Positions 16,086 to 60,031 of a DNA stretch of 64,000 nt are shown here, piece by piece. The position numbers and the translations under genes were made by a program. The notes beneath the pieces were generated by a model that saw only the letters and a list, made by a program, of their open reading frames with translations, was not told where the DNA came from and ran no database searches. The number at the start of each line of letters is the position of its first letter. Within the stretch, counting starts at the first letter, position 1. Source of the stretch: Candidatus Saccharimonadota bacterium (GTDB lineage: Bacteria > Patescibacteriota > Saccharimonadia > Saccharimonadales > UBA4665); contig JAQBRY010000002.1 in assembly GCA_028286245.1 (NCBI GenBank), positions 142,779-206,778 on the forward strand, written 5' to 3'.

Positions 16086-16121
16086 AGTTACCCTATTTTA
16101 GCAAAAATTAGGCAGTTTAGC

Positions 16122-17036
16122 CTAGCTAGCTTTACTACGACTCTTCTCGAGCTGCCTTCGCAGCGTGTAGAGCTCGTGGCGGCGACCAATAAAAAATGCG
16201 GCCACAATCAGCGGCAGCATCAGGAATAATGGCCAAATAAGTATCTTGGCCTTAGGGGTTGTGCCGCCGCTAGGCGATGCAGACCCACTACCCGACTGGG
16301 TAACTTTGCCGTTAGAAATGCCCACTAGCTGTAAGTAGGCCGTGCCGCCGTTAGCGTCGGTGATTTTAATGATAATTTTGTAAACACCGGCGGATTTATA
16401 AGAGTGTTTAATGTCAAAACTGCCGGCAAACGACTGGCTTTGTAAGTCCGGAGCACTGCCGTCTCCCCAGTCAATGCTAACAGCGTACGGTCCGGCGCCG
16501 CCACTCAAAATAATTGGCCAGGTCAACACCTGGCCAGGGTCGGCACCGCGCTTTGCATAGATACTACTTAGTGACACATGGGTACCAAACTGAATAAACT
16601 GCTGGTCATTAAAGGTCACCGTGACCGAATTAGAATCGGGCCCCTGCTGGTCCAGCGAGTCGTAAATCCGGGCTACGATTTCGTTTTGGTTACTAAAAAG
16701 ATCCACTTGTATAGAGTAACTGCCGGTTTCACACTGCGCCGAGCCCACAAATACATTGTTAGCAAATATCTTTACCAGTAGGCCCTTAGGGCAGAGGCCG
16801 GAGACGGTAATAGGTACGCTCCCAAAAACCGCACCGTTTGTAGGCGACGATATGGAGGCTGCCTGCTTGGGAGGGTCAGAAGATATCTTGCCCTCAAGCC
16901 CAATTGAGCCGGTACCCGGGTTTACGGGCGGGGTTGCGGCCAATGAACTAAGGGGCGTAATGACGAGCACGAGGGCAAGCACGCACAAACTCAACCATAG
17001 CTGCAGGCGGGACGGAGCGGGAACCAGGCGTTTCAT
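16122..17036 (-). CDS. secreted PKD-like domain protein with C-terminal membrane anchor
   Basis: Signal peptide. PKD-like YAVSIDWGDGS...YKIIIKITDANG. C-terminal TM helix followed by a basic tail. Confidence 0.65.
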   Translation of the reverse strand: MKRLVPAPSRLQLWLSLCVLALVLVITPLSSLAATPPVNPGTGSIGLEGKISSDPPKQAASISSPTNGAVFGSVPITVSGLCPKGLLVKIFANNVFVGSAQCETGSYSIQVDLFSNQNEIVARIYDSLDQQGPDSNSVTVTFNDQQFIQFGTHVSLSSIYAKRGADPGQVLTWPIILSGGAGPYAVSIDWGDGSAPDLQSQSFAGSFDIKHSYKSAGVYKIIIKITDANGGTAYLQLVGISNGKVTQSGSGSASPSGGTTPKAKILIWPLFLMLPLIVAAFFIGRRHELYTLRRQLEKSRSKAS

Positions 17037-17071
17037 AGTCTAAGCATAACCTTATTGGTAGTTAGCAGCAA

Positions 17072-18061
17072 TTAGCGGCGGCGGCTGGCTTGGCGGATAA
17101 TCCGCTGGTTGTAGCGGCGGATTAAGCGTGGGAGGCCGAATATCAGGAAGACAATCAGGGCAGCCAAAACTATAAACAGGGCTATTAAGGCAGTTGGAAT
17201 AACATAAAAGGTAGTACTGGCACTCAACAACTGACCGTTTGAACCATAGCCAAAGTTACCTTCTAATTTGTAGATACCAAATGAGCCAACCTTGTTAAGA
17301 GGGATGGTAAACTTGCGAATACTGTCCGGCAAAACGTTGCCCCGGGGAGTAGTGTTATTGATTTCGTACTGATCAAGGATTTTACCCGAACGGTTCTTAA
17401 GTAAGATTTTGCCGAAAGGCTGCTCCTGGATGTTTCCCTCGTTACGGAAACGAACAACGGCATCAATACCCTTATTGCTTGTAAACAAGCTCTTGGCGTC
17501 GTCTTTGCGGCGGGTGTCAAAACTTGCAAGATTGAGCTGGCTTTTAACATCACCGGATACTCGAACCAAGATCAAAGAACCGACACTGCCTGCCAGGTAC
17601 ACATTCTTACCGGCCGGATCGGCGTCGGCTGGCGCAAAGAGCACAGAGCCGTAGTAACCACCACCGGCAGCGTTAGCCGGGATTTTGATGGTAACCGGTA
17701 TAGAGCGCTGTTCGCCGGGCTGTAAAGAAAATTTAGGAATAGCCTGTACGTACTGGCGAAGACTGTGCTTAAGAGAAGCCGAAGCCCCGTCACGCACAAT
17801 GGCCGGCTGGCCACTTTCGTCACTGCTGGCTGCAAAGTCGTTAACAACCGCTTGCAGGTCAGATTTAGCAGTCGTGACGTTTGTAACGGTGATGTTAACC
17901 ACCTCGGACTTGCCAGGATCAATAGTAAGTTCAGTTCGGACCGGAGAAACGCGAAGGCCATTGCCACCTGCTGCCTTGGCAGTGCCGGTTACGCCACTAC
18001 CCAGTACGACGGCTAGTGTCAGCAAGAGTGCCGTTGGCCGCCATATTTTATTAAACTGCAT
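17072..18061 (-). CDS. DUF916/DUF3324-like (CscA / WxL-interacting-protein-like) surface protein with C-terminal TM anchor
   Basis: Signal peptide and two Ig-like beta modules: LRVSPVRTELTIDPGKSEVVNITVTNVT...IPANAAGGGYYGSVLF, then VVRFRNEGNIQEQPFGKILLKNRSGK. Terminal TM helix plus an RRYNQRIIRQASRRR tail. AAGGGGA RBS. Confidence 0.6.
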   Translation of the reverse strand: MQFNKIWRPTALLLTLAVVLGSGVTGTAKAAGGNGLRVSPVRTELTIDPGKSEVVNITVTNVTTAKSDLQAVVNDFAASSDESGQPAIVRDGASASLKHSLRQYVQAIPKFSLQPGEQRSIPVTIKIPANAAGGGYYGSVLFAPADADPAGKNVYLAGSVGSLILVRVSGDVKSQLNLASFDTRRKDDAKSLFTSNKGIDAVVRFRNEGNIQEQPFGKILLKNRSGKILDQYEINNTTPRGNVLPDSIRKFTIPLNKVGSFGIYKLEGNFGYGSNGQLLSASTTFYVIPTALIALFIVLAALIVFLIFGLPRLIRRYNQRIIRQASRRR

Positions 18062-18166
18062 GTCTGTTTTCCCCTTATGTTTTGCTTAGCACTATAGTAT
18101 CAAATCAGTTACTCTTTGCCAATACAGAAACCTCATAAAACAGCTTCTAAGTGCGTATGTCAAACA

Positions 18167-19228
18167 TTAAAAGTTAGCTAGGCAGGTATAGGTAACGGTG
18201 CTCACATACACGCCCGGCGCCTGAGTTTTTGGAATATTTACGATGTAACTAGCCGTATAGCGGCGAATATCATCCGGTTTATTAACGCTCACCAGCGTAT
18301 CTCCCGGCGTAAACTTATAAAAATTTGGTTGGCCGTAATTTGTTACCGGCGATGCCAGGCCGGGGCCGCCCGGATCAGTACCGCCAGCCGGCGAGCTATT
18401 AGCCCGCAGATTTAAGCCAAACTGTGAATTCCCGCTCCGCGATACATCCGCCGTATCGAGCGGGCTAATAACGTTGTTACCACTGGTAAGGGTTGTCCCG
18501 CTCACAAAAATATTGTAGCCGTCGCGCGCGTTGGTAGCAGTCAATAGCTGAGAGGTTCCTTGATTAGCATGGGTGGACGACAGCTCGCCAAAATCAACAT
18601 AGTTACCATTGGCACTAGAACAATTTAAAGAGGCAATAGTGGCACCCACACAAAAAATAATATAGGGCGGTACTTCTGCGCTAATAGCCAGGTTGGCATT
18701 AATGGCAATAACAATAGCACCGTAATCGTTGGCTACTCCCGTGCCGTCGGCAGAAGCATAGGTTTGTAAACGCACAAAATACGATCCGGTGATAGAGGGG
18801 TTGTGAATAGCATCAAAGGTGTAGCTCACCGGTCCGGCAGTTGCTGTCGCCGGCGTACGTCCGATAACAATTTTATTGGCTGTAGAACCGCTAGTAACCG
18901 TAAACCCCGTTTGCCCCGATTGGGCAGACAGACTGGCAGCGCTAGCATCCAAGCCGGTAGGAGCGGTGCACGGGTCGGTCACAAACGGACTGTTTGTACA
19001 GTATTCAACTGCAACAGAACCGAGTACGCCAATTGATGTCAGGCGAAATGATAATTTTTGACTACCCACGCCGTCAACAATACTAGTGCTCAGTGTCATC
19101 GAGCGCTGACCTAATTGGGCACCATTAACAGGGGCTGAAAGCACCCTTACCGCCAGTAGTAATACTACGAGGGCGGTAAGGACTACAACAGGCTTATGCA
19201 GCAATGTTTTGGTGAGGGGTTGGCTCAT
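18167..19228 (-). CDS. secreted beta-rich WxL-like surface protein, 353 aa
   Basis: Signal peptide. Paralogous to the 19240-20478 product (shared C-x-N-x4-D-x-C-T-x-P-T, TY(A/S), FCVG). WxL-domain-like VDFGEL...NARDGYNIFVSG...QFGLNL. Ends in YVSTVTYTCLANF. Confidence 0.6.
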   Translation of the reverse strand: MSQPLTKTLLHKPVVVLTALVVLLLAVRVLSAPVNGAQLGQRSMTLSTSIVDGVGSQKLSFRLTSIGVLGSVAVEYCTNSPFVTDPCTAPTGLDASAASLSAQSGQTGFTVTSGSTANKIVIGRTPATATAGPVSYTFDAIHNPSITGSYFVRLQTYASADGTGVANDYGAIVIAINANLAISAEVPPYIIFCVGATIASLNCSSANGNYVDFGELSSTHANQGTSQLLTATNARDGYNIFVSGTTLTSGNNVISPLDTADVSRSGNSQFGLNLRANSSPAGGTDPGGPGLASPVTNYGQPNFYKFTPGDTLVSVNKPDDIRRYTASYIVNIPKTQAPGVYVSTVTYTCLANF

Positions 19229-19239
19229 TCATTCGTAGC

Positions 19240-20478
19240 CTAGAATTTGCCAGTAGCAATCAAGTCGATGTTGGCCGTGTAAATACCGGCTGGGGTCGTC
19301 AGTGAGGCGACAGCTGCAAAGGTGTAGGTGCTGTCCATACGGTAGAGCGGAGCGGTTGAAGAAGCCACTGGGTCTCCAAAGGTACCGATCACGCTGCCGG
19401 TATCACCAGTAGTTTCGGTATCCATCCCGTAAGTGTTAGCTCCTGTAGATTTGTAGTTTGCGTCTGCAGTCAGAGTTCCTGTGCCATTGGTGTCTGGTGT
19501 ACCGTCGCCAGTCGACATGCCAAATGCGGCCGTACCAATAACCATGGTACCTATTACATAGCCTCCGGTACCGATTGCCGGGATGTCACAGCTAGTACCA
19601 CCGTTGGCACTGAGGCCACCACAAGTAGTGTTACTGTTACGCATCGCAATGGTGGCGCCAGCCGTAGCGTTGGTAGAAATTTGGGAATATACGCTGCCGG
19701 TATCAATCGCCGTAGAGTCCAAGGTAGGGGTCGGGGTGCCATGACCGAGCGTCAAGGCGGGAGCATCTGCAGCCTGTGTAGAATCACAACCGTGCGTTGT
19801 CCATGAGCTGTGGATGGTGCCAGAGACACAGAACGTTAGTTGTTCCTGAACACGAGCCGTAATGGTAATGATTTGGTTAGTACTGAGGGCAATACCGCCA
19901 TAATCTTTGTAGTTACCAGGAGCGGTTGGCAGCGTATAGGCTGTAGTGCTAGAACCAAAAGTTGCATCTGAATAGGTATAAATACGAGCGTAGAAGGTAC
20001 CGAGGGTGCTGGTATTAGTTATGCCGGTCAGGTTAAATGACTGAACGCCTGCCGCCGCCGTAGAGCCTGAGCCCTTAGCGAGTTCGATGTGGCCGGCAGA
20101 TGCCGAAGTAGCTGCCCAACCCGGGCTGGTAATATCACCCGACACACCGGCTAAGCCTACGCCGGAAGTAACCATGGCAGTTGGGACGGTACAGGTATCA
20201 CCAATAATTGGGTTCTGGGAACAGAAGTCTATTATAAGGCTGTCGGCGGCCGTGGTAGTTGTAAACTTCACTTGGTAAGTAACGCCGGTACCACTACCGA
20301 CGCCGGTAGTAATAGTACCGCCACTTACGCCGGAGTCACTCAGCGTAATGCCGCGAAGGAGCAGCTGAGCAGCAGAGGCTGTCTTAGGCCGAAAGACCGG
20401 ATAGGCCACTCCTACCAAAAGTGCAACTGCGGCCATCGTGTAGCCGACCCGTTGCAATACACGAAACTTAGTTATCAT
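19240..20478 (-). CDS. secreted beta-rich WxL-like surface protein, 412 aa
   Basis: AAGGAG RBS and a signal peptide. Paralogous to the 18167-19228 product. Ends in YTANIDLIATGKF. Confidence 0.6.
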   Translation of the reverse strand: MITKFRVLQRVGYTMAAVALLVGVAYPVFRPKTASAAQLLLRGITLSDSGVSGGTITTGVGSGTGVTYQVKFTTTTAADSLIIDFCSQNPIIGDTCTVPTAMVTSGVGLAGVSGDITSPGWAATSASAGHIELAKGSGSTAAAGVQSFNLTGITNTSTLGTFYARIYTYSDATFGSSTTAYTLPTAPGNYKDYGGIALSTNQIITITARVQEQLTFCVSGTIHSSWTTHGCDSTQAADAPALTLGHGTPTPTLDSTAIDTGSVYSQISTNATAGATIAMRNSNTTCGGLSANGGTSCDIPAIGTGGYVIGTMVIGTAAFGMSTGDGTPDTNGTGTLTADANYKSTGANTYGMDTETTGDTGSVIGTFGDPVASSTAPLYRMDSTYTFAAVASLTTPAGIYTANIDLIATGKF

Positions 20479-20592
20479 TGAATTTCTCCTTGAGTATTTT
20501 TGTTTATTGTTTTTGGTTTTAGATATTTCTGAGGCTATCGTAACACGCTTATGTTAGGGCTGCAAGCAAAACATTAAAAAGTTATCCACAAG

Positions 20593-21330
20593 TTAATAGG
20601 TCGCGGTAGCAACGAGATCGTGTTCCAGCGAGTAGGTTCCGCCCGGCGTTACGTTACTAATATTAAATAAGTAGGAGATCGTGTAGTTAGTGTAGCTGCT
20701 GCTGGCAGTGGACAAGGCTATGGTGTCATCTTTTACGTACTTATATATGTTAGGACTACTGTAATCCACTGCCACCTGGCCAAAACCAAAGGACGTATCA
20801 GGGCCCTGCGTAGGATCGGCACCAAAGGTAGTTGGCAGGGTATTGGCCACTAGGTTAATACCGAACTGCTCGGTTCCCACCTGTGAGGCAGATGGAATGG
20901 TAATTGCCGCCATATGATAGGTGTTGTTCTTAGGAGTATCAGATGTAGAAGTAACCGTATAGCCATTTGACAGGTACGATTTAACGCTAAAGGTGGCCGT
21001 TGTCGTTTTGGTGGTAGTTGGTGTCATGGTTCCCAGGTCTACGTTTGTAGTACCAACGGTAAATTCGATGTAGGGTTCCCTATTTGTATTAAAGCCACCC
21101 TGGGCCTGAAAATTAGTGCTCGCCGTATTGCCTACCGCTGTTTCACCGGCCGACTGCTTAGAGCAGTAGCTTCCTGAACAGGCATTGAGCTCGCCGCCGC
21201 TACCAAAAAAGACCTCGTTCACTTGATACGAATTGGAGGATGACTGAGCAGCAAAAGTTATTGCTGGGGTGAGTACTACCACGAGCAATCCAAAAAAGGC
21301 TAGTTTTACTGTTTGTTTCCAGACACGCAT
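20593..21330 (-). CDS. secreted beta-rich WxL-like surface protein, about 245 aa
   Basis: Signal peptide MRVWKQTVKLAFFGLLVVVLTPAITFA from the ATG at 21330. Contains NGYTVTSTS...EQFGINLVANT. Ends in YSLEHDLVATATY. Confidence 0.6.
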   Translation of the reverse strand: MRVWKQTVKLAFFGLLVVVLTPAITFAAQSSSNSYQVNEVFFGSGGELNACSGSYCSKQSAGETAVGNTASTNFQAQGGFNTNREPYIEFTVGTTNVDLGTMTPTTTKTTTATFSVKSYLSNGYTVTSTSDTPKNNTYHMAAITIPSASQVGTEQFGINLVANTLPTTFGADPTQGPDTSFGFGQVAVDYSSPNIYKYVKDDTIALSTASSSYTNYTISYLFNISNVTPGGTYSLEHDLVATATY

Positions 21331-21431
21331 AATACTAGGTATATTTTGCCGTAAAACCAACAAAATGGCAATCCGTTTACGGTTACAAGGTTTTTAAAGT
21401 ATCATAAGACTACTTATAGACGCAGTAAATT

Positions 21432-22418
21432 ATGGACTCCACTAACCCAACACCACCAGAAGAAAGCCAAGCCGACCCCGATGCCGATGCCGACGCCCTA
21501 GAACGCACCGACACAGAAAATGCTGAGGCAGAAAAAGCTACAACACCGGTAGCACCCGTCGCGCCGCCAAAAAAAGGCGGTATTATGGGTATTGTTAAAC
21601 GATTTAACATTTACCTTATGCTGTTCCTTTTTGTACTGACTATCGCTGTGGCAGTTATTATTGTGGCTTACTTTCAGAGCCAAAAGGGCACCACAAAAGC
21701 TACCGTTACTACACAGGATCTTAATCAGGCGGCCCTCGATCAGCTGGCTAATAGCGACGCCTCTGTGGGCGATCCTAAACAGTTACTGAATGTTCAGTCT
21801 AATGCCGTTTTTGCCGGCCAGGTACTGGTGCGAGGCTCCGCGGAGATTGCCGGCGGCCTCCAAGTAACGGGTAGTACTGTTCTGGTAAACCTTACCACCT
21901 CCGGCCCCGCCGTGTTTGATCAAGCGCAGGTTAATAAAACGCTGAGCGTCGCCGGCGACACCACCATACAAGGAAGCCTGGCAATTCAAAAAGGCATTCA
22001 AGTAAATGGCGGCGGTAGCTTTAGCGGGCCGGTAACCGCCACCCAGATCACTACAAATGCCTTCCAGCTGGCAGGCGACCTGACACTGACTAGCCACGTG
22101 GTAGCCGGCGGCTCAACTCCTACTCGGGTCAATGGCCCGGCGCTCGGCAGCGGCGGCACTACCAGCGTAAGCGGCTCCGACACTAGCGGCACCCTAGCCG
22201 TGAATACCGGTAGCGGACCCTCAGCCGGTTGCTTTGCCACCATCACCTTTGCTCGTAAATATAACGCCGTTCCGCACATTACCGTCACGCCGGTTGGCTC
22301 AGATGCCGGCGGACTAGCCTACTATATTACCCGCACCGCAACCACCTTTAGTATCTGTTCCGCCTCCCCGGCGCCTGCCGGCTCATCCTTTGCTTTTGAT
22401 TACTTTGTCGTGGAATAA
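21432..22418 (+). CDS. membrane-anchored beta-helical repeat protein
   Basis: Acidic N-terminus, then one TM helix (IYLMLFLFVLTIAVAVIIVAYF). Degenerate G/T/V-rich repeats follow (VLVRGSAEIAGGLQVTGSTVLV...). The C-terminal ~90-aa beta domain may be lectin-like. Confidence 0.6.
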   Translation: MDSTNPTPPEESQADPDADADALERTDTENAEAEKATTPVAPVAPPKKGGIMGIVKRFNIYLMLFLFVLTIAVAVIIVAYFQSQKGTTKATVTTQDLNQAALDQLANSDASVGDPKQLLNVQSNAVFAGQVLVRGSAEIAGGLQVTGSTVLVNLTTSGPAVFDQAQVNKTLSVAGDTTIQGSLAIQKGIQVNGGGSFSGPVTATQITTNAFQLAGDLTLTSHVVAGGSTPTRVNGPALGSGGTTSVSGSDTSGTLAVNTGSGPSAGCFATITFARKYNAVPHITVTPVGSDAGGLAYYITRTATTFSICSASPAPAGSSFAFDYFVVE

Positions 22419-22457: not shown

Positions 22458-23993
22458 ATGACAACGCCTATAGCTACCAACACAAATGAAAAAATCGGCC
22501 AGTTAATCGCCCGTATCCGTCAGGATAGGGGCCTAACCCAAGCCGAGTTTGCCGACCGGCTTAAAACCTCCCAGTCAGCCGTAAACCGGATTGAACACGG
22601 CCGGCAAAACCTAAGTTTAGAGATGTTAGGACGCATTAGTGACGTCTTAAATAAGCAGCTGATCAGCGTGAGTGGTGGTGCAGTAAACCTAAGAATTGAA
22701 GGCGGCCACGAGCTGCACGGCGAAATTGACCTCAAAACCAGTAAGAATGCTGCCGTTTCACTATTATGCGCCAGCCTTCTCAACTATGGTGTTACCCGCT
22801 TTAAATCATTTCCACGTATCGAGGAGGTAAACCGCATTATTGAAGTGCTCGAAAGCATCGGCGTCCAGGTAAAATGGCTGCCCGGCAATGATCTGGAAAT
22901 CCGCCGTCCAGAAGTTTTACAACTCGACAAACTGGACGCCAAAGCGGCCCGTAAAACTCGTTCGGTCCTGATGTTGATTGGCCCGCTTATGCACGACCAC
23001 CAACTATTCAAAATTCCGTTTGCCGGTGGTTGTAAGCTCGGCACACGCACAGTGGCTCCCCACTTTTATGCGCTCGAAGAACTCGGCGTTAGCATTGTAG
23101 CTACCAAAGGCAATTACGAAGTAGCGGTTAATAAAAAATCAGCCGACAGAATTACCCTGTACGAACCGGGTGACACCGTTACCGAAAACGTTCTCATGGC
23201 TGCCGCCCGCACCACCGACCAGGTGTTTATAGAGTTTGCCAGTGCCAACTACATGGTGCAAGAAATGTGCTTTTTCCTGCAAAAACTCGGCGTCGAGATC
23301 AGCGGCATCGGTACCAGCAAGTTAACCGTAAAAGGCGTACCATTTATAAAAAAGAACATTACCTACGCCCCGAGCGAAGACCCCATTGAGGCCATGTTCT
23401 TTGTGTCGGCCGCGGTCACCACGAACTCTGAAATCACTATTAATCGTGTGCCAATCGAGTTTATGTCTATGGAGCTTCTTAAGCTCAAAAAAATGGGGCT
23501 TAGCTACGACGTAACACCTCGTTACAAAGCCCTCAACGGCCAAACCGATCTGGTAGACCTAACCGTTCATAAACACGACGGCAAACTACGTGCTGTGGCC
23601 GATAAAATCCACTCCCTGCCCTTCCCTGGCCTCAACGCCGACAACCTGCCCTACTTTGTGCCAATTGCCAGCGTCACCCGCGGCCGCACGCTTATCCACG
23701 ACTGGATGTATGAAAACCGGGCCATCTACTACACCGAAATGACTAAGATTGGTGCCCAAATTGAACTGGCCGACCCGCACCGTGTATTCATTACCGGCGC
23801 TACTAAATTTACTCCCGCCGATGTGGTTTGTCCGCCAGCCCTCCGGCCAGCTTCACTACTGCTCATAGGCATGCTCGCCGCCAACGGCATCAGCATCCTG
23901 CGTAACATCTACACTATTCAGCGCGGCTACGAAGACCTGGCCGAACGACTCAACAGCCTCGGCGCCGACATTACCGTCCTCCACGAGATCTAG
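22458..23993 (+). CDS. murA: XRE-type HTH domain fused to UDP-N-acetylglucosamine 1-carboxyvinyltransferase
   Basis: N-terminal IARIRQDRGLTQAEFADRLKTSQSAVNRIEHG (HTH_3-like). The rest is collinear with MurA/EPSP-synthase fold proteins (KTSKNAAVSLLCASLL, active-site-loop Cys in FAGGCKLGTRTV). TATAAT (22444-22449) ends 8 nt before the ATG. Confidence 0.85.
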   Translation: MTTPIATNTNEKIGQLIARIRQDRGLTQAEFADRLKTSQSAVNRIEHGRQNLSLEMLGRISDVLNKQLISVSGGAVNLRIEGGHELHGEIDLKTSKNAAVSLLCASLLNYGVTRFKSFPRIEEVNRIIEVLESIGVQVKWLPGNDLEIRRPEVLQLDKLDAKAARKTRSVLMLIGPLMHDHQLFKIPFAGGCKLGTRTVAPHFYALEELGVSIVATKGNYEVAVNKKSADRITLYEPGDTVTENVLMAAARTTDQVFIEFASANYMVQEMCFFLQKLGVEISGIGTSKLTVKGVPFIKKNITYAPSEDPIEAMFFVSAAVTTNSEITINRVPIEFMSMELLKLKKMGLSYDVTPRYKALNGQTDLVDLTVHKHDGKLRAVADKIHSLPFPGLNADNLPYFVPIASVTRGRTLIHDWMYENRAIYYTEMTKIGAQIELADPHRVFITGATKFTPADVVCPPALRPASLLLIGMLAANGISILRNIYTIQRGYEDLAERLNSLGADITVLHEI

Positions 23994-24034: not shown

Positions 24035-24109
24035 GCGGGATTAGTACATCGGTTAGTATGTGAGTTTTCCAAACTCGAGAGACCAGTTCGACTCTGGTAT
24101 CCCGCACCA
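24035..24109 (+). tRNA. tRNA-Gly(UCC)
   Basis: Hand-folded cloverleaf. Acceptor GCGGGAT/ATCCCGC. Anticodon arm TGAGT-TTTCCAA-ACTCG. T-arm ACCAG-TTCGACT-CTGGT. CCA is encoded. Confidence 0.9.
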
Positions 24110-24121
24110 TCATTACGCCGC

Positions 24122-24198
24122 GCCCTGGTAGCTCAGTTGGATAGAGCAGGAGACTTCTAAGCTCAAGGTCATTGGTTCGAATCCAATCCGGGGCACCA
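24122..24198 (+). tRNA. tRNA-Arg(UCU)
   Basis: Acceptor GCCCTGG/CCGGGGC. D-arm GCTC-AGTTGGATA-GAGC. Anticodon loop CTTCTAA. T-arm ATTGG-TTCGAAT-CCAAT. CCA is encoded. The anticodon stem has only 3 Watson-Crick pairs (GGAGA/GCTCA). Confidence 0.8.
24181..24198 (+). repeat. attL-like direct repeat ATCCAATCCGGGGCACCA (3' end of tRNA-Arg)
   Basis: Perfect 18/18 match to 29509-29526 in the same orientation. Confidence 0.85.
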
Positions 24199-46407: not shown

Positions 46408-47559
46408 TTACTTCACTTGCTGCCGCTTAGAGTCCGCCCGTACCGGCACCACATGGGCTGCTTGGTCTGCAGAATTTGTGCCGCTCACAGCTATCTTTTT
46501 AGCAGCCTTAGGAGTTCCCGAAATAGGGTTTTGCGATTGTACTTTTGTGGGTACCTTAGCTGCCTTTTTTATTGCTATTTTTGGTGCCTTTTGCAGGTGT
46601 ATTTTTATAATTCGGCGTCGTTTTGGATGCATGAGCCAGACTACAAAACACACAACAATCAAGGCAGCCAACAGGCCTATTTTTGGAACATACCAAAAAT
46701 ATACAGTCGTCGACTGAACCGTGTCCTGACCGTCATAACGATAAACAACGTGCAGTGAATATCTTCCTGGTAAAATTGGCTGTTTGTATTCGGTCAAATC
46801 GGTTTGCAATTTAATTTTTTCGGCAGGAAAAAGTGGAATAGACTGATTATTTATAACGCCCTGTGCATAGATGGTGCCTGCCTTTTTATTGTCAATGGTA
46901 ATAACACCGCGCGGTACGGAATAAACATTCCCGGGATTTGAAAATGTAACGTTTACGGCTTTGGGCAAGCTCAATAAACTTCGCCTTGGGCTGACGCTAG
47001 TTACTAACAAATTACGGACTGCGCCATCTTCTTTAATAACATATATCGTTGCACTAATAGCTGGTTCCAAGGACAGTTGGCCGGCGCTGCTTGCCGTGGT
47101 ACCGGTCTGCGTTAGTAACAATGATACGTAATGTCCGCCCGGCGAGAGACTGGCTGAGTTTTTTATGGTAACTGCCACATTTATTGAACGGCCGGCCGGG
47201 ATCGTAAATGCAGCCGGTGTAATAACGGTATTGGCAACCAAGGCAGCATCGGCTTTGGTAGACGGGGTGAGGCTGTTATTTTGGACGCTGAGTCCACTTA
47301 AAGCAGCGGTCATAGTAATAGACGCCGCGTAGTTATTACGAACGCCGACCGAAAAACTGGTTTGTGGCTGCAACGCACCAACCTGAGCCACTGAATAGGC
47401 CGGAGCCACGGTAATATTGCCGGCAATCTGAGCAGCCTGCGCTCCAGATACCGAGTGAGACTGCACTACTGCCACCAGGAGCACTGCTATTAAACCGAAC
47501 GCCCAGCCAGACTGAGCATAACCCCGTAGCCTTTTACTCACTACGCTTGCGGCGCCCAT
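46408..47559 (-). CDS. DUF916/DUF3324-like surface protein with C-terminal TM anchor and Lys-rich tail
   Basis: Signal peptide. FTIPAGRSINVAVTIKNSASLSPGGHYVSLLL, then VTFSNPGNVYSVPRGVITIDN...PGRYSLHVVYRYDG. TM helix, then a ~70-aa Lys-rich cytoplasmic tail. Confidence 0.55.
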   Translation of the reverse strand: MGAASVVSKRLRGYAQSGWAFGLIAVLLVAVVQSHSVSGAQAAQIAGNITVAPAYSVAQVGALQPQTSFSVGVRNNYAASITMTAALSGLSVQNNSLTPSTKADAALVANTVITPAAFTIPAGRSINVAVTIKNSASLSPGGHYVSLLLTQTGTTASSAGQLSLEPAISATIYVIKEDGAVRNLLVTSVSPRRSLLSLPKAVNVTFSNPGNVYSVPRGVITIDNKKAGTIYAQGVINNQSIPLFPAEKIKLQTDLTEYKQPILPGRYSLHVVYRYDGQDTVQSTTVYFWYVPKIGLLAALIVVCFVVWLMHPKRRRIIKIHLQKAPKIAIKKAAKVPTKVQSQNPISGTPKAAKKIAVSGTNSADQAAHVVPVRADSKRQQVK

Positions 47560-48586
47560 GTCGTGAATGCTTCCCTAAGCGGAAAAAGAATTTAATAGTG
47601 GCAACAATTCCTATCAACAGTATTATTAACGCCACCAGCAGACCAAGTACAATCTTCCAGGGGAATACCCAAAAGCTAATTTCTGTTTCCAGCGGCACAT
47701 CACGTTGCCCGTTATTGTAAATGACCACAACGCGTGCCACATACCGCCCGATTCTAAACTGTGAGTCACGCCAGTGCCATTCCAGGTGTTGCTTTGGGGC
47801 GGCATTTGCTACGTCTTGCGTAGAAACACGCACGGGCACGCCATCTGCCCAGCTGAGCGGATATTCTCGTGTTATACCGGGTAACAAATACAGCGAGCCG
47901 GGATTTACCGGTAATATGGTGAGCGGCTTATTACTATTTGATTTACGCTGGATATAGACATTGCCGGCTGGCAATAAGAGCGAGTTGCCGTTGTTACGAA
48001 GTTTGAGTGTAAAGGTGGCCGGTAAGTACTCGTATACTTTGTGTGCGGACGTCAGGCTGGTAATTTGCAGTGACTTTTTAGCACCTGGCCGATCAACATT
48101 CAGTAGTGTAAACGAAGCCACCGAGCCTTGAATTGCAGTTTGCCCCTTGACTATCTTGGGAGCGGTTTGCCGACTGATTACCATCGCAAAGGAGTAACTA
48201 AAACCGGCCGATGCTGGCGTATCCACATTTATAAGTTGCGTGGTACGCTCACCCGGTTTTATAGAAAAGGTTGGGTGCACAAAGCTTACCCAGCCGGCAA
48301 CCTCAGAGGGCTTACTCGGCTCAAGCGTCACCTTACCAGTGTCGCTGGCTACCTTAAAGCTTTGCACCTCTATCTTTAGGTTTTCCTGGGTAGTACCGCC
48401 GTTATACACCTTAAGTTCAAGGGTTTTATGTTCGCCCGGTTTTACCGTTTCGACTATGGGAGAGGGGCTAATTTCTAATGATATGCCTGGATCAGACGGC
48501 GTAGCGGCTTGAGCCAGTGGAATCATTAGCAGGTTTGCGGCTAGGATTCCCAGGCTAATAAGTGGAAGGAATTTTTTTGTAAGCAT
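47534..48586 (-). CDS. DUF916/DUF3324-like surface protein with C-terminal TM anchor
   Basis: The ATG at 48586 follows TGGTATACT. Signal peptide. ISLEISPSPIVETVKPGEHKTLELKVYNGG, then FTLKLRNNGNSLLLPAGNVYIQ. TM helix plus a basic tail. Confidence 0.6.
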   Translation of the reverse strand: MLTKKFLPLISLGILAANLLMIPLAQAATPSDPGISLEISPSPIVETVKPGEHKTLELKVYNGGTTQENLKIEVQSFKVASDTGKVTLEPSKPSEVAGWVSFVHPTFSIKPGERTTQLINVDTPASAGFSYSFAMVISRQTAPKIVKGQTAIQGSVASFTLLNVDRPGAKKSLQITSLTSAHKVYEYLPATFTLKLRNNGNSLLLPAGNVYIQRKSNSNKPLTILPVNPGSLYLLPGITREYPLSWADGVPVRVSTQDVANAAPKQHLEWHWRDSQFRIGRYVARVVVIYNNGQRDVPLETEISFWVFPWKIVLGLLVALIILLIGIVATIKFFFRLGKHSRHGRRKRSE

Positions 48587-48649
48587 CTTGTATTCGTAGT
48601 ATACCAGGCCCATAACTGTTACCAGCGGAGGACTTATGCCAACAAGCGG

Positions 48650-49681
48650 CTAGAAGGAGGCAGCGCCAACAACGGTAATAGTGTCCGTGTAGTCGGTGGC
48701 AGCTGGTGTTGCACCGGCGACAGCGGCGTTGGTAGTAAGCGACAAGACGTGGCCGGTAGCTGTTCCGTTAGCCGAAGCCATAGAGGCAAATGAGGTGTTA
48801 AGCCCACCGCCCTTGCCGGCTGAGCCGCCAACGAATGGTGCCGTAACGGTGATAACCCCAGTTCCACCACCGTTTGCCGATGTGACACCGGTGTTGTAGC
48901 CTTCGGTACCGGCTGAAAGCGTGCTGTTTGTGCCCGGAGTGGTAGAAGCGATTGTCTTGGTAGCGCTGGCGGAGAGCAAGCCAGTATTGACATCACGGGC
49001 CCAGAGGTTCCAGCCGCTGGCAGCGTTGGTGTTTATGGTTACCGTACGTGGTGTTGGGCTTGATGAGACTGCACCGCTGGCAAGTGCGCCAAGGTTATCT
49101 GTGTTGCCGCTAAGTGCAAAGCTGAATGCCTGCGGCACTGATGCGGTGACTACAATCTGGTCATCGGCAATACTAGCCGTGCTAAAAGGAGAAGAATCTA
49201 GCAGAGTTGGACCGGCTATATATGTTTCAACGGTACCGGTATTGTTGGCAGTAGCACTTGCTTTAACAGTTACAGCCACTGGGTTCACCCAGTTAAAGCA
49301 GTAGAGTACTCCTACGGTAAGGTCACCACTTGGAAAGGTTACAACCTGACCGGTAACATTAGTAGCGGTAGCAATACCGGGCCAGGCGGTACCACCGGTA
49401 GGCCAGGCGGTGTTAGTAGTGCCGACGGTAAAGGTCGAAGCGATTCCAAGCGTATAACCGGTTGGGAAAGTAACTAGAGTAGTTGCTTCCGTACCCGCGC
49501 TAGAAGGCTTAGCACAAACGGTGCCAGTGGTGGTGGTACTGATCTTCATACGATCAAAACGAACAGAAACTTGAGACAAAGAGGCAGCATTTGCTACGCT
49601 CGCGAGCACAACAGGAGCAATTATAGCGATGCCAAACACGGCCACCAGTGACCTTGCAATTAGTTTGCGATTGATTGGCAT
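48650..49681 (-). CDS. secreted beta-rich WxL-like surface protein, 343 aa
   Basis: CAGGAG RBS and a signal peptide. FSFALSGNTDNLGAL...TVTINTNAASGWNLWARD retains a literal W-x-L. Ends in YTDTITVVGAASF. Confidence 0.6.
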   Translation of the reverse strand: MPINRKLIARSLVAVFGIAIIAPVVLASVANAASLSQVSVRFDRMKISTTTTGTVCAKPSSAGTEATTLVTFPTGYTLGIASTFTVGTTNTAWPTGGTAWPGIATATNVTGQVVTFPSGDLTVGVLYCFNWVNPVAVTVKASATANNTGTVETYIAGPTLLDSSPFSTASIADDQIVVTASVPQAFSFALSGNTDNLGALASGAVSSSPTPRTVTINTNAASGWNLWARDVNTGLLSASATKTIASTTPGTNSTLSAGTEGYNTGVTSANGGGTGVITVTAPFVGGSAGKGGGLNTSFASMASANGTATGHVLSLTTNAAVAGATPAATDYTDTITVVGAASF

Positions 49682-49763
49682 TGTATGCTCCTGAAGAATG
49701 ATTCTTTTATTGTTTATATTGTGAACTAATGACAGTATGCATAACCATTATTAATTATGCAAA

Positions 49764-50819
49764 TCAAAATGACATGGCAGTGATAATAGTCACCTTATCG
49801 GAATAGTCAGTAGAGGCGGGTGTGATAGAAGTTGTCTTAGCCATAAAGGTAATTTGACCGCTGCCCGTAGTAACAGGGCCGGTCGTTCCAAATAATTGCT
49901 GCAGGCTGGTGCTCAGCGCTCCAACGTTATTAGCGGAGCCGTTATAAGGGCTGCTAGCGGTCAGAGGACCGCCGCTAGCCTGCGAAAGGCTGGTTATCTG
50001 ACCCCCGTAGCCGCTGGCGGCGGCAGTAAGGTCAGCAGTAGCAGAGCTTATAGTACTATTTTTGGCGGTACTAAATAATCCGTTACTGGTGTCTTTTATA
50101 TAGACCCCTCCGCCAAAAACGGCATTAGTACTAACGCTCACCAGCGCTCCAGCATTTGCCGAGAAGACGCTGTTTGGCGCTAAACTAGTAAAACCCACTG
50201 TAAAGGGCGGCGTTGCATTAGCGGTAGTTGCAACGGCAAAACTAACCGACGGTGCTGCCGTTGCTACCCCTGTTGAAACTGGACCAAAAGCCGAACCCGT
50301 AAAACCGCCCTGCAGGGCACTTACTTTTACGGTGTAGGTGGTGCTCGGCAAAAGACCCAGCACATCAATACCGGTAGAACTCCCCCACAAAGCATAGGTC
50401 TGATAATCCTCTATCCCGAGTACTGCCCCGACGCTATTGTCATTTTGAATATACTTAGTGGTCGCAAATCCGTCGGAACTAATAGCGATTGCAAATTTTG
50501 TATCGGTTGGATTACTACCATTATTAATAACTAGGTGCAGCTTATTATAGGTGTTAGCCGGGTTACTTAAGGTGGCTGCCGGCGGCACGTTCGCGGTCTG
50601 GCTCGACTGCTCACCAGGTTTCAAAATTGTTATACCGTTGGTTGCCGAGGCACCCGTCTGCGAACCGGACGTCCCGTTTAAGGCGTACGAGCTGCTTGAG
50701 CTGCTGCCACCGCCAGTACCAAAATCGTAATTCCTGAGCGTAAAGTTGGTACTTGCCGGTGATGCTGCAAATAGACTGATAAGCCCTGTGGCACTAAAAG
50801 CCATGAAGGTTTTAAACAT
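49764..50819 (-). CDS. secreted beta-rich WxL-like surface protein, about 351 aa
   Basis: Signal peptide from the ATG at 50819 (MFKTFMAFSATGLISLFAASPAST). Ends in YSDKVTIITAMSF. Confidence 0.6.
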   Translation of the reverse strand: MFKTFMAFSATGLISLFAASPASTNFTLRNYDFGTGGGSSSSSSYALNGTSGSQTGASATNGITILKPGEQSSQTANVPPAATLSNPANTYNKLHLVINNGSNPTDTKFAIAISSDGFATTKYIQNDNSVGAVLGIEDYQTYALWGSSTGIDVLGLLPSTTYTVKVSALQGGFTGSAFGPVSTGVATAAPSVSFAVATTANATPPFTVGFTSLAPNSVFSANAGALVSVSTNAVFGGGVYIKDTSNGLFSTAKNSTISSATADLTAAASGYGGQITSLSQASGGPLTASSPYNGSANNVGALSTSLQQLFGTTGPVTTGSGQITFMAKTTSITPASTDYSDKVTIITAMSF

Positions 50820-50924
50820 ATACACTAATACTACCATTTTCACGAGGATTCGAGGCGCAGCTTTATTGATGCCCCAGAGCAGTGCACACTGCTATACTGG
50901 TGAAAAGATAATTGGGAGAAGGTA

Positions 50925-57339: not shown

Positions 57340-58365
57340 TCAAATTTGGACAGAGAAGACCATGGTTCGCATAGTGTATTCTCCGGCATTTTTGTCGTAC
57401 GGGCCGCCACAGGTAATCAAATTAAGACCGGGCACGCCCGGCTGTACTGATCGCAAACCAAGGCCCAGATCGAGTGTTTTGGCGTCATAATCTTGCACTT
57501 TGACTACTTTGTATTGGAAGACAGTGTCATCACCGCGGGTAATTTTTATGATGTCACCGGCTTTGAGTTTCTTAATTGCCACAAAAACACCGGGCAGAGT
57601 AGGTCCGTGAACGTGGCCGTCTATAAGTATGGCTCCATTCCCGGCCGAATCACCCGGCTTGGCGCTGGCGTTATACCAACCGGCGTCGTAAATACTGTAG
57701 GGTGCCTGCAATTCACCGTTTGCGGTAATTCCCATTGGCTTAATCCGGGCGTTATTAACACCTATCGAATTAATAGTAATTAGTTTTGGTGAACCTGGTG
57801 CAACTTGGTAGGGCGCACCATTGGCTGGCGGCTTTGCTTCTGAAGGTGGTTGCCCGGGACTTAGGGCCGTTACCTCACCGGTACTGTCTGCCTTTTTTGA
57901 GCTTAGAGCGGCCACTTGTGCCTTGGTACTACTATTCGTTTGCAAGGTAATTAAGCTAACTATGAGACCAACAAAAAAGATAAAGCCTGCCATACCTACC
58001 AAAGCTATTTGCGGCCGGGAATACCGCGACCAGCGGCTCTGGTGCTTCTGCTCTAATATCGGTGCCGTAACGGCTTGGCGCTGCAGAACGTGTGAGGTCT
58101 GCTGCTTGTGTTGGGCTGGCCGGGCATAGGCCTGGGGCTCAACAATTGCCAACGGCGCGCTTGGTACCGCTACTAAAGGAGGCGGAGCCACTGGCTTTGG
58201 CGCCATGTGCTTTTGTGGTGGTGAAACAAAACTCGGATCCCGCACAATCTGGGCACGACTGCGGTTCACAATAGGAGCACGTACGGAGCGCGCCGCCAAA
58301 TTTGGCTGGCGCAATCTCCCGTAAAATGCTGGATTATCGAGACCGATTCGTGCGCGGTCGGGCAT
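57340..58365 (-). CDS. membrane-anchored sortase
   Basis: Pro-rich N-terminal region and one TM helix. The catalytic domain has ILIDGHVHG (His), LNLITCGG (TLxTC-type Cys) and a downstream Arg (YTMRTMVF). Confidence 0.8.
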   Translation of the reverse strand: MPDRARIGLDNPAFYGRLRQPNLAARSVRAPIVNRSRAQIVRDPSFVSPPQKHMAPKPVAPPPLVAVPSAPLAIVEPQAYARPAQHKQQTSHVLQRQAVTAPILEQKHQSRWSRYSRPQIALVGMAGFIFFVGLIVSLITLQTNSSTKAQVAALSSKKADSTGEVTALSPGQPPSEAKPPANGAPYQVAPGSPKLITINSIGVNNARIKPMGITANGELQAPYSIYDAGWYNASAKPGDSAGNGAILIDGHVHGPTLPGVFVAIKKLKAGDIIKITRGDDTVFQYKVVKVQDYDAKTLDLGLGLRSVQPGVPGLNLITCGGPYDKNAGEYTMRTMVFSVQI

Positions 58366-58393
58366 GTTTGTTTCCTTTGTGTTTTGTACCGTT

Positions 58394-60031
58394 TTAACGG
58401 CGAGTTGCAGGCTTTAGGCGGCGGGCTGCAATCAGCAGGCCGAGGCCGGCAATGGCTGAGGCACCGAAGGCCATCATTGGGTGGGCAGCAATCAGCTGCA
58501 TACCAGTGTCAGGTGTTTTTGGAAGTATAGCTGCATCTACTGCTGCAGTCGTCAGGACAACATCGTTGCCATCTCCACCCTTGTAGGTAATGTTGTACGT
58601 AACACCGCCAAGCGTTACTGCGGCGCCTTCGTCAAGGCCCGTAAAGGTGCCGGTAACGGCATCACTGCCATCATTATCGATGATGGTGTAACTCTGGCCA
58701 GTTTTTGGTACAAAGCCATTGTAGAGACTAGGCGTTAGTGTACCGCCCGTAACATCAACCGTACCTGTTACCTTGACTTGGTCGTAGCCGGTACAAGGAT
58801 CGGTGCCGCCAATTTCTTCTTGAAGTGTACCAGACAGTGTAAAGTTGCCAGTCGTCAGACAGCCAGGGCTGTTACCGGGAGCAAGGATAGCACCAGCGCC
58901 AACGTAGAGTACACCAACTGTACCGTGGCCTTTCAGTGTACCACCGCTGCTAACACTGACATCACCACGCTTACCATCGATGGTAACCACGGCTTTGTCA
59001 TTAATTTGAACTGAAGTACTCGCCAAATCATCACTTAGTGTTGTAGTCGACGCTGTAGGGCTGTACGTACCATTAGCGATACCGGAGGTGTTGGCGCTAC
59101 TGTTAATTACCAAGTCACCGCCATAGGAGTCAGTAGGCATTAGGAATGTAAAGTTACCGGAAAGGGCACCCGTAATCGTGGTTACCTTTGAGACACCACC
59201 AAAGGTTACATCGGCGCCAAGCGCAATTGCGCCAGTAAGCGTGGTAGCATCGTCAGATGTACTATACACGCCGTACGTCACATCGGAGCCACCACCGCCG
59301 CCGCCAGCACATGTTGCGCCGGTCTCAAGCTTACGCTCAGAAGGAGCACCAGCGCCATTGAGGTTTAGGTTTTCGGCCACTGTCAGTGGGCCACTACAGC
59401 TACCAACATCGAGGGTGGCACCATCATTTACTGTTGTTGCGCCGGCAGTTGTTCCTAATGCAGTATTCGTGGAAGCAATGATTACACCAGCACTAAGTGT
59501 TAGGGAGCCAGTAAAGGTATTAGCCCCGGTCAAGTATAAATAACCAGCACCGGTTTTCGTGAGAGCCCCGCTACCGCTAAGTACACCACCGAGGGTAATG
59601 TAGTCATCCGTACCAACGTTAATCGTCTGGGCACCACTAAAGGCAATATTAACGTTAAGGCTAGCGCCGGCCGAGGTGCTGTCAACAATGCCGCCGGTCA
59701 AGGTGATGTCATTACCAGTTACCGAGTAATAGGTTGACTCGCTGACGCCTAGCGTACCCGAAAAGGTAACACTTGCAAAGCTAGTACCTGCGGTCAGGTC
59801 GTTGACAGCCGTTTTGTTGGTAACCGAAGCTCCGTACGGAAATACAAGATCAGAGCCCGCAGCAGGAGCGGTGCCACCGGACCAGTTTGCGCCGGTGCTA
59901 AAGTTTCCGTCGCTGCCGCCGCCGGTCCAGGTTTTGGTCGCGGCACTCGCCAAAGGAATGCTAAGCGTTAGTAGTGATGACACGCTGACTAGCGTGGCGA
60001 GGCCCATTCGAGCCAATTTTGTGATTTTCAT
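58394..60031 (-). CDS. secreted beta-helical repeat (autotransporter-associated beta-strand repeat-like) protein with C-terminal cell-wall sorting signal
   Basis: Signal peptide. Repeated G-x-L-T/L-x-G-x-N-T-F/Y-x-G units. C-terminus LPKTPDTG (58502-58525), a hydrophobic helix, then ARRLKPATRR. Confidence 0.7.
   Translation of the reverse strand: MKITKLARMGLATLVSVSSLLTLSIPLASAATKTWTGGGSDGNFSTGANWSGGTAPAAGSDLVFPYGASVTNKTAVNDLTAGTSFASVTFSGTLGVSESTYYSVTGNDITLTGGIVDSTSAGASLNVNIAFSGAQTINVGTDDYITLGGVLSGSGALTKTGAGYLYLTGANTFTGSLTLSAGVIIASTNTALGTTAGATTVNDGATLDVGSCSGPLTVAENLNLNGAGAPSERKLETGATCAGGGGGGSDVTYGVYSTSDDATTLTGAIALGADVTFGGVSKVTTITGALSGNFTFLMPTDSYGGDLVINSSANTSGIANGTYSPTASTTTLSDDLASTSVQINDKAVVTIDGKRGDVSVSSGGTLKGHGTVGVLYVGAGAILAPGNSPGCLTTGNFTLSGTLQEEIGGTDPCTGYDQVKVTGTVDVTGGTLTPSLYNGFVPKTGQSYTIIDNDGSDAVTGTFTGLDEGAAVTLGGVTYNITYKGGDGNDVVLTTAAVDAAILPKTPDTGMQLIAAHPMMAFGASAIAGLGLLIAARRLKPATRR

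Follow-up and report, generated by a model that had tools for sequence, protein, structure and literature searches.

A probable Pam pilus operon in a Saccharimonadia genome and the kinship of its anchored chaperone-like protein with the WxLIP (DUF916) family

What kind of surface structure is specified by three secreted and two membrane-anchored proteins encoded side by side in a Saccharibacterium, and does it have relatives in other bacteria? The question is raised by a run of five minus-strand genes at 16122-21363 in a 64,000-nt stretch of DNA (contig JAQBRY010000002.1 of GenBank assembly GCA_028286245.1), referred to here as the window, from a soil-type Saccharibacteria metagenome-assembled genome (MAG). 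The organism is a monoderm bacterium of the candidate phyla radiation (CPR). A preliminary description of the window had presented the genes as a WxL/Csc-like operon in a non-Firmicute. Our analysis indicates that the cluster is very probably the Pam pilus operon of Saccharibacteria, consisting of pamT, genes for a PamA-like and a PamE-like pilin, a gene for a PamD-like chaperone, and pamR; given this identity, the earlier headline is untenable as stated. The description was correct in recognizing a DUF916/CscA-type protein among the five, and the kinship of this protein with a Firmicute family is the second result reported here.

Identity of the five-gene cluster

The identification is based on a comparison with the CPR parasite Ca. 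Mycosynbacter amalyticus, the thin filaments of which have been solved by electron cryo-microscopy (cryo-EM) (Troman et al., bioRxiv 10.64898/2026.03.03.709456). In that preprint, the filaments are composed of the two-domain pilins PamA and PamB, joined via donor-strand exchange. Further products of the same operon are PamE, the tip pilin PamT, the membrane-anchored PapD/FimC-like chaperones PamC and PamD, and the RbmA-like anchor PamR, with the accessions in the order T-A-E-D-R-B-C (10.64898/2026.03.03.709456).

The window genes follow the accession order T-A-E-D-R of that operon. The first, pamT (20593-21363, 256 aa from a TTG codon), is followed by a pilin gene in the PamA position (19240-20478, 412 aa), a pilin gene in the PamE position (18167-19228, 353 aa), the gene of a chaperone-like protein in the PamD position (17072-18061, 329 aa) and pamR (16122-17036, 304 aa), with intergenic gaps of 114, 11, 105 and 35 nt. 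An N-terminal hydrophobic signal-like segment is present in all five proteins, and the 329- and 304-aa proteins additionally have a hydrophobic helix with a basic tail at the C-terminus. The layout is therefore as first described, with five co-directional genes encoding three beta-rich proteins with signal peptides and two anchored ones. The length of 245 aa given at that time for the first protein corresponds to the ATG at codon 12 (21330), which suits the 241-position PamT profile better than the TTG and is likely the true start.

Three models of NCBIfam release 20 derive from the 2026 preprint and were applied with their curated cutoffs: NF058578 (PamR), NF058579 (PamT) and NF058581 (Pam pilin C-domain). 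The PamT equivalog matches the product of the first gene with 296.6 bits (cutoff 240) over profile positions 6-241 of 241, and the PamR equivalog matches that of the last with 405.9 bits (cutoff 300). The pilin C-domain model scores 154.9 bits in the 353-aa protein and 142.5 bits in PamT, the cutoff being 55. Pfam finds nearly nothing in the five proteins except PF06030 in the 329-aa protein and sub-threshold PKD matches in the 304-aa protein. The likeness to the M. amalyticus operon extends to pilins of two predicted domains, in which the linker strand is conserved and cysteines are paired, to a chaperone with two immunoglobulin (Ig)-like domains and a PamR that are both anchored by a transmembrane (TM) helix, and to the lineage, which is likewise Saccharimonadia.

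PamR itself is RbmA-like and has two domains, an N-terminal strand that follows the signal peptide, and, at about residues 261-285, a C-terminal TM helix with the basic tail behind it; it is proposed to be the terminator and anchor of the fibre. This protein had been called PKD-like; its PKD matches reach 19-20 bits and stay below the gathering threshold. The N-terminus of PamR bears only a weak likeness (NF053819 E 0.042; hhalign P 0.034) to CscD, the LPXTG protein of Firmicute WxL clusters. It is noted that in about one sixth of the related Saccharimonadia loci (thirteen loci) an additional and longer gene of the PamR-like type (345-407 aa) comes after pamR, whereas the window is without it.

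The distribution of the cluster was surveyed by scanning GTDB species genomes with two conserved chaperone peptides, which gave 292 genomes with a relative. The 80 best were examined; apart from a small number whose labels are generic or probably wrong, all of them are Saccharibacteria/Saccharimonadales MAGs. The same order of the five genes on one strand is seen at 55 of these 80 loci, and contig ends cut most of the others; the 412-aa-type pilin is the second gene in 55 of the 80. Because this order recurs so widely, the five-gene operon is far from a chance arrangement. Gene content, family memberships, architecture and synteny are shown here for the cluster itself. No identifiable mention of the cluster was found in the Cell 2023 transposon-sequencing paper on Saccharibacteria.

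Several points weigh against this identification and should be considered together. The 412-aa protein reaches only 34.8 bits with NF058581, under the cutoff of 55, and the 329-aa chaperone has no NCBIfam match whatsoever. The 412- and 353-aa proteins are assigned to PamA and PamE by position only. The second, DUF3324-like domain of the chaperone is colinear with its Firmicute counterpart but not significant by sequence (hhalign P 0.08; no PF11797 match at E<=1), and a full-length pilin model gave generic two-Ig-domain matches in the PDB, with TM-scores below 0.26, in a Foldseek search. The chaperone role of PamC and PamD is itself just an AlphaFold prediction in the preprint (10.64898/2026.03.03.709456). 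The filaments, the order of assembly and the contact with a host would be properties of the window organism by analogy with its M. amalyticus orthologues. There are also differences in layout and size. PamA of M. amalyticus is about 55 kDa, whereas the pilin in that position here is far smaller, at 412 aa, and misses the pilin-domain cutoff. In M. amalyticus pamB and pamC come after pamR, but in the window the next gene after pamR is mnmA. Unlike M. amalyticus, the window has no ATP synthase genes flanking the operon, and it has a second, divergent chaperone/pilin cluster 25 kb away (46408-50843).

The anchored chaperone-like protein and its Firmicute relatives

The 329-aa protein consists of a signal peptide, a DUF916 Ig-like domain, a second Ig-like domain and a C-terminal TM helix, and contains the motifs FRNEGN...GKI and IPANAAGGGYYGSVLF. 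The Pfam model PF06030 (DUF916, now 'WxLIP_PGBD') matches it with 30.6 bits, above the gathering threshold of 27.3. For comparison we collected 120 Firmicute WxLIPs with both PF06030 and PF11797, from Listeria, Enterococcus, Bacillus, Lactococcus and Carnobacterium. It should be mentioned that the bait for this collection was a synthetic, consensus-like query, which is not evidence; the proteins returned are genuine database entries that carry NCBI names. When the Saccharimonadia chaperone family was aligned with 25 Firmicute WxLIPs, hhalign gave a probability of 96.4% (E 1e-9) over the DUF916 domain, and the N-domains alone gave 97% (E 9e-11). A hidden Markov model (HMM) of Firmicute WxLIPs ranks the 329-aa open reading frame (ORF) first among the 188 ORFs of the window (E 3.6e-6).

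The predicted structure points in the same direction. The AlphaFold2 (AF2) model of the 329-aa protein (predicted local distance difference test score, pLDDT, 83.8) shows two Ig-like domains and a helix at residues 290-328. Its best Foldseek matches in the PDB are 9i1y_A, titled 'WxLIP from Enterococcus faecium', and 9i25_C, titled 'WxLIP ... bound to long WxL', with E 1e-11, TM-scores of 0.49-0.55 and 273-277 aligned columns that cover both domains. The next matches are the chaperone-usher chaperones CfaA, CsuC, Caf1M, FimC and DraB, with TM-scores of 0.45-0.53. PapD_N and PapD_C of Pfam do not match the 329-aa protein, so that the likeness to these chaperones is at the level of the fold only. 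Judged from sequence and modelled structure, the 329-aa protein is a member of the WxLIP/CscA (DUF916) family of the Firmicute WxL clusters. The preliminary assignment of both DUF916 and DUF3324 to this protein therefore holds for its first half and lacks sequence support for its second. The structural check proposed with it led to WxLIP structures for the 329-aa protein, but to generic folds for the 353-aa protein.

The likeness to WxLIP/CscA proteins of Enterococcus, Listeria and Lactiplantibacillus, which have the order DUF916, DUF3324 and TM helix, concerns architecture, size, DUF916 homology and the best two-domain fold match. It also concerns gene position, as the gene stands at or next to the end of an operon whose secreted products carry a C-terminal partner domain. 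In Firmicutes the WxLIP binds this partner domain, as predicted and as solved in a complex, and a WxLIP strand completes the sandwich of the partner. A hairpin strand of WxLIP was predicted with AF2 to fill a gap in the WxL beta-sandwich (Hassan et al. 2023), which is the same principle as donor-strand complementation by a chaperone, and PDB entry 9i25 is a solved complex of a WxLIP with a long WxL protein. There are also differences. Unlike the Firmicute proteins, the window chaperone has no DUF3324 detectable by sequence, and its partners are Pam pilins, which show neither WxL motifs nor a WxL signal in Pfam. Firmicute WxL clusters include the LPXTG protein CscD, in place of which the window has the TM-anchored PamR, and their complexes are described as bound to peptidoglycan, not as fibres. 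With the chaperone placed in the DUF916/WxLIP family, it follows that Pam pili and WxL clusters share at least the chaperone component; they probably share the principle of strand complementation as well.

A Candidatus Saccharibacteria bacterium MAG encodes a protein (locus tag JWM81_400) with 100% identity to the 329-aa protein, and NCBI already names the latter's Saccharibacteria orthologues DUF916 proteins. The preliminary remark that such clusters are not described from this lineage is thus outdated, both by these labels and by the published account of the CPR Pam operon (10.64898/2026.03.03.709456). The text and supplement of that preprint do not mention WxL, DUF916 or DUF3324, and our literature search found neither a link of WxL or DUF916 to CPR or Saccharibacteria nor a publication describing 9i1y and 9i25. 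The link between the CPR pilus chaperone and a structurally characterized Firmicute family is absent from the literature searched. A tblastn search with the 329-aa protein against plasmids, aimed at an annotated Firmicute cluster, returned noise only.

The secreted pilins and the WxL question

The three secreted proteins have a C-terminal domain in common (hhalign 97.9-99.8%). PamT, the putative tip pilin, is a single-domain protein with a signal peptide, a cysteine pair (C62/C67) and the Pam pilin C-domain; it is matched by both NF058579 and NF058581. In the 353-aa pilin the signal peptide is followed by an N-domain (38-180), a linker or donor strand (183-199; AEVPPYIIFCVG) and a C-domain (200-353). 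The 412-aa pilin has a signal peptide, an N-terminal beta-sandwich, a linker strand (…LTFCVSG…), a divergent C-domain and six cysteines. The two larger proteins are paralogues, as had been noticed in the preliminary description: their N-domains match with BLASTP E 1e-15 and HMM E 1e-22, and their C-domains align with an hhalign probability of 98.5%. For PamT and the C-domain of the 353-aa pilin this value is 99.8%. The motifs quoted in that description do occur, with small corrections. VDFGEL (211), NARDGYNIFVSG (233), QFGLNL (269) and FCVG (192) are all present in the 353-aa protein, and the chaperone motif FRNEGN...GKI was also read correctly. The 412-aa protein has FCVS (216) in place of FCVG, and the cysteine spacing was slightly misquoted, being C-x-N-x5-D-x-C-T-x-P-T in one large pilin and C-x2-N-x4-D-x-C-T-x-P-T in the other.

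The linker at 183-199 is the best conserved segment of the 353-aa family, at 3.15 bits; the C-domain has 2.85 bits and the N-domain 2.5. According to the preprint, conservation in the pilins is highest in the donated strand and in the site that binds it (10.64898/2026.03.03.709456). On these two grounds the segment with the FCVG motif is most likely the donor strand. The AF2 model of the 353-aa pilin (pLDDT 88.2) has two all-beta domains. Sequence searches of the PDB with the 353-, 412- and 329-aa proteins and with the 353-aa family profile gave nothing useful, the structures of PamA and PamB being absent there or too divergent.

Could the cluster instead encode a complex of the WxL/Csc type, in which WxL-domain proteins are held non-covalently on peptidoglycan by a DUF916/DUF3324 protein and provide non-filamentous adhesion? 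In favour of this, the anchored 329-aa protein is truly related to WxLIP, and the operon grammar is similar, with secreted proteins that carry a C-terminal domain followed by a TM-anchored two-Ig protein. By eye, the pilins and WxL proteins share colinear blocks with matched spacing (FGE; Q-x9-G-[WY]-x-[LI]; C-terminal G-x-Y-x4-T-[WY]), which are without statistical support and had evidently been noticed in the preliminary description. The three secreted proteins themselves cannot be shown to be WxL proteins. PF13731 (WxL) has no match to them at E<=1, and not even 'faint' precomputed matches exist for the CPR orthologues. No Trp-x-Leu motif occurs in their mature parts, and the 353-aa protein is without any Trp. 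For profile comparison we used 11 small WxL proteins and 4 C-termini of large WxL proteins from five Firmicute loci. Whether run full-length, trimmed, local, with low mact or global, hhalign of the pilins against the WxL alignments gave P of at least 0.046. One of 60 column shuffles of the 353-aa family reached the real score against WxL (reversed nulls were also run), and no signal emerged when the linker was added or when the three C-domain families were merged into a superfamily profile. HMM searches of the ORF sets in both directions and comparisons with the large-WxL C-termini also gave noise, while the positive control, small against large WxL proteins, gave 97.6% (P 3e-12).

Among the 50 best Foldseek matches listed for the full-length pilin model, the WxL chain 9i25_A does not occur, and a search for its sequence with an Enterococcus large WxL protein gave no match. 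As all sequence comparisons with WxL are at noise level, the blocks seen by eye are a lead only, and with no Pfam, motif or hhalign signal the pilins are not counted in the WxL family. The WxL-domain-like core once ascribed to the secreted proteins is accordingly not supported; it is plausible that the pilins function like WxL proteins. In addition, the cluster has no CscD-like LPXTG protein, and the M. amalyticus orthologues make long filaments. The WxL/Csc reading of the operon as a whole is therefore unlikely.

Less likely still, and in our judgement very improbable, is a set of independent Ig- or fibronectin-like adhesins that are merely co-transcribed and are not assembled by a chaperone. 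At the level of the fold the pilin model does match MSCRAMM adhesins, integrin calf domains and RbmA, and no ATPase, usher or sortase was found among the five operon genes in the ORF list or in the Pfam and NCBIfam scans. However, the strict gene order in 55 of 80 loci, the pilin C-domain common to three of the genes, the conservation peak in the linker between the domains, the match of the anchored protein to strand-donating chaperones and the cryo-EM filaments of the orthologues all speak against separate adhesins. A sortase-dependent pilus of the Gram-positive type, using the class F sortase-like gene (57340-58365; 98 bits, cutoff 166) that lies about 36 kb off beside the gene of a 545-aa beta-strand-repeat protein, can be practically dismissed, as this gene is outside the operon, the anchors are plain TM helices and no LPXTG-type C-terminal sorting signal occurs in the five proteins.

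For the Pam pilus operon, by contrast, a coherent route of assembly can be proposed; every step beyond Sec export is modelled on the M. amalyticus work and on relationships of fold and sequence. All five proteins would be exported by the Sec pathway. The 329-aa protein would stay tethered in the cytoplasmic membrane through its C-terminal helix and, in the manner of PapD and FimC, cap the incomplete Ig-like C-domain of a pilin by inserting a beta-strand. This strand would then be swapped for the linker strand of the next pilin (…VPPY-I-x-F-C…), and repeated donor-strand exchange would yield a linear fibre without an usher. PamT would occupy the tip, and the N-terminal strand of PamR would enter the last pilin, thereby anchoring the fibre in the membrane. 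The finished fibre would probably make the first contact with the host bacterium.

In comparison with the chaperone-usher pili of Gram-negative bacteria (Pap/Fim, CFA/I, Csu, Caf1), the chaperone fold is alike, as is polymerization by donor strands, which has been shown for the Pam orthologues. The differences lie in the missing outer membrane, in the anchoring of the chaperone in the membrane and in the lack of an usher, no usher-like gene being present among the five operon genes (245-412 aa). Pam pilins, moreover, are built of two domains, and the strand they donate is an internal linker, whereas chaperone-usher subunits donate an N-terminal extension.

Surrounding genes and wider reading

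Consensus scans gave weak candidates for the ends of the transcript, both on the minus strand. A promoter-like site, TTTACT-17-TATGAT (21401-21429; 9/12), lies 5' of pamT in the divergent intergenic region, and a terminator-like hairpin with a 5-bp stem and a T-run (16109-16124) is located directly 3' of the pamR stop. On the other side of the intergenic region, a plus-strand gene (21432-22418) encodes a 328-aa protein with an acidic N-terminus, an N-terminal TM segment and a beta-rich, fibre-like body that has weak H_lectin and bactofilin-type Pfam matches. Of the 58 pamT-containing loci, 45 have a homologue that divergently adjoins pamT. This neighbour is possibly the 'tail fibre-like protein' noted next to pam operons in the preprint (10.64898/2026.03.03.709456), and it is uncertain whether it is part of the Pam system.

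The second cluster, also on the minus strand, contains two DUF916-type paralogues of the chaperone, each with a C-terminal TM helix: a 359-aa protein (47534-48613; HMM E 3e-18) and a 383-aa protein (46408-47559; HMM E 3e-14). Upstream of both, a pair of secreted beta-rich paralogues is encoded (48650-49681 and 49764-50843; mutual E 2e-13). No Pfam or NCBIfam model matches this pair, and their C-termini, ...ITVVGAASF and ...VTIITAMSF, resemble those of the Pam pilins. The cluster may represent the PamB/PamC-type half of the system. Directly downstream of it, in the minus-strand segment 41237-46316, lies the gene of a 769-aa protein that has an AhpC/TSA-redoxin domain at its C-terminus in addition to fn3/Big-type Ig domains; beside it a 754-aa secreted protein is encoded, with a weak N-terminal match to the 'mosaic adhesive trimer' of a Bdellovibrio-type fibre protein.

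Other features of the window are given for completeness. At 22458-23993 on the plus strand, a Cro/C1-type helix-turn-helix domain (HTH_3, E 1e-13) is fused to a MurA/EPSP-synthase-family enzyme (E 3e-42), an unusual architecture. After the tRNA genes tRNA-Gly(tcc) and tRNA-Arg(tct) at 24035-24198, the G+C content is lower for about 6 kb (0.44-0.47 compared with about 0.50 elsewhere), and the segment 24035-30000 may be an element integrated at a tRNA site. The sortase-like gene and the adjoining gene of the 545-aa protein, the repeat of which is of the autotransporter beta-strand type (57340-60031, minus strand), could reflect a separate sortase-dependent surface protein.

A wider reading may be considered, which we hold to be possible although doubtful. 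Pam pili and the Firmicute WxL/Csc clusters would represent two branches of a single ancient monoderm system, in which an anchored DUF916 chaperone caps an incomplete C-terminal beta-sandwich and the subunits are joined by donor strands. Homology of the chaperones is established from their sequences; that between the Pam C-domain and the WxL domain is not detectable by sequence. The Firmicute small WxL proteins and small LPXTG (CscD-like) proteins have a module in common (hhalign 86.9%, P 4e-6), made up of a signal peptide, a short 'S-x-a-x-I-x-F' strand and a linker rich in Pro. The LPXTG proteins concerned are from the Firmicute loci L082-L085, for example L083:3940-4287, L084:3467-3802 and L085:4117-4443. 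In monomer models the N-terminal strand covers the WxL platform (Hassan and Williamson). We hypothesize that the shared module is a donor-strand module and CscD a terminator anchored in the wall, as the analogue of PamR. If so, the Firmicute WxL proteins would be strung together via this N-terminal strand and would not just sit on peptidoglycan, and the LPXTG protein CscD would tether the string in parallel to the anchoring of the Pam fibre by PamR.

A cultivated CPR parasite carries Pam pili as abundant fibres on its surface, and they are its likely device for host capture, in agreement with the host-attachment role for which the preliminary description had made the cluster a candidate. The window places the operon in a soil-type Saccharibacteria MAG, and its core five-gene order is widespread in Saccharimonadia. 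What is new concerns the assembly chaperone. In the preprint it appears as an orphan that resembles just the Gram-negative PapD and FimC (10.64898/2026.03.03.709456), but it belongs, on the sequence and model comparisons above, to the DUF916/WxLIP family, for which crystal structures, including one of a complex with a WxL protein, date from 2026. WxLIP would thus offer an experimentally tractable Firmicute model for the chaperone step in CPR. According to the preprint, no homologues of the Pam pilins exist outside CPR (10.64898/2026.03.03.709456), and the kinship of the chaperone calls into question whether the Pam system as a whole is without relatives there. It also suggests that the WxL/Csc 'cell-surface complex', a concept now 20 years old, can be re-read as a chaperone-assisted strand-complementation system, so that Pam pili and the Firmicute WxL clusters may share one such mechanism.

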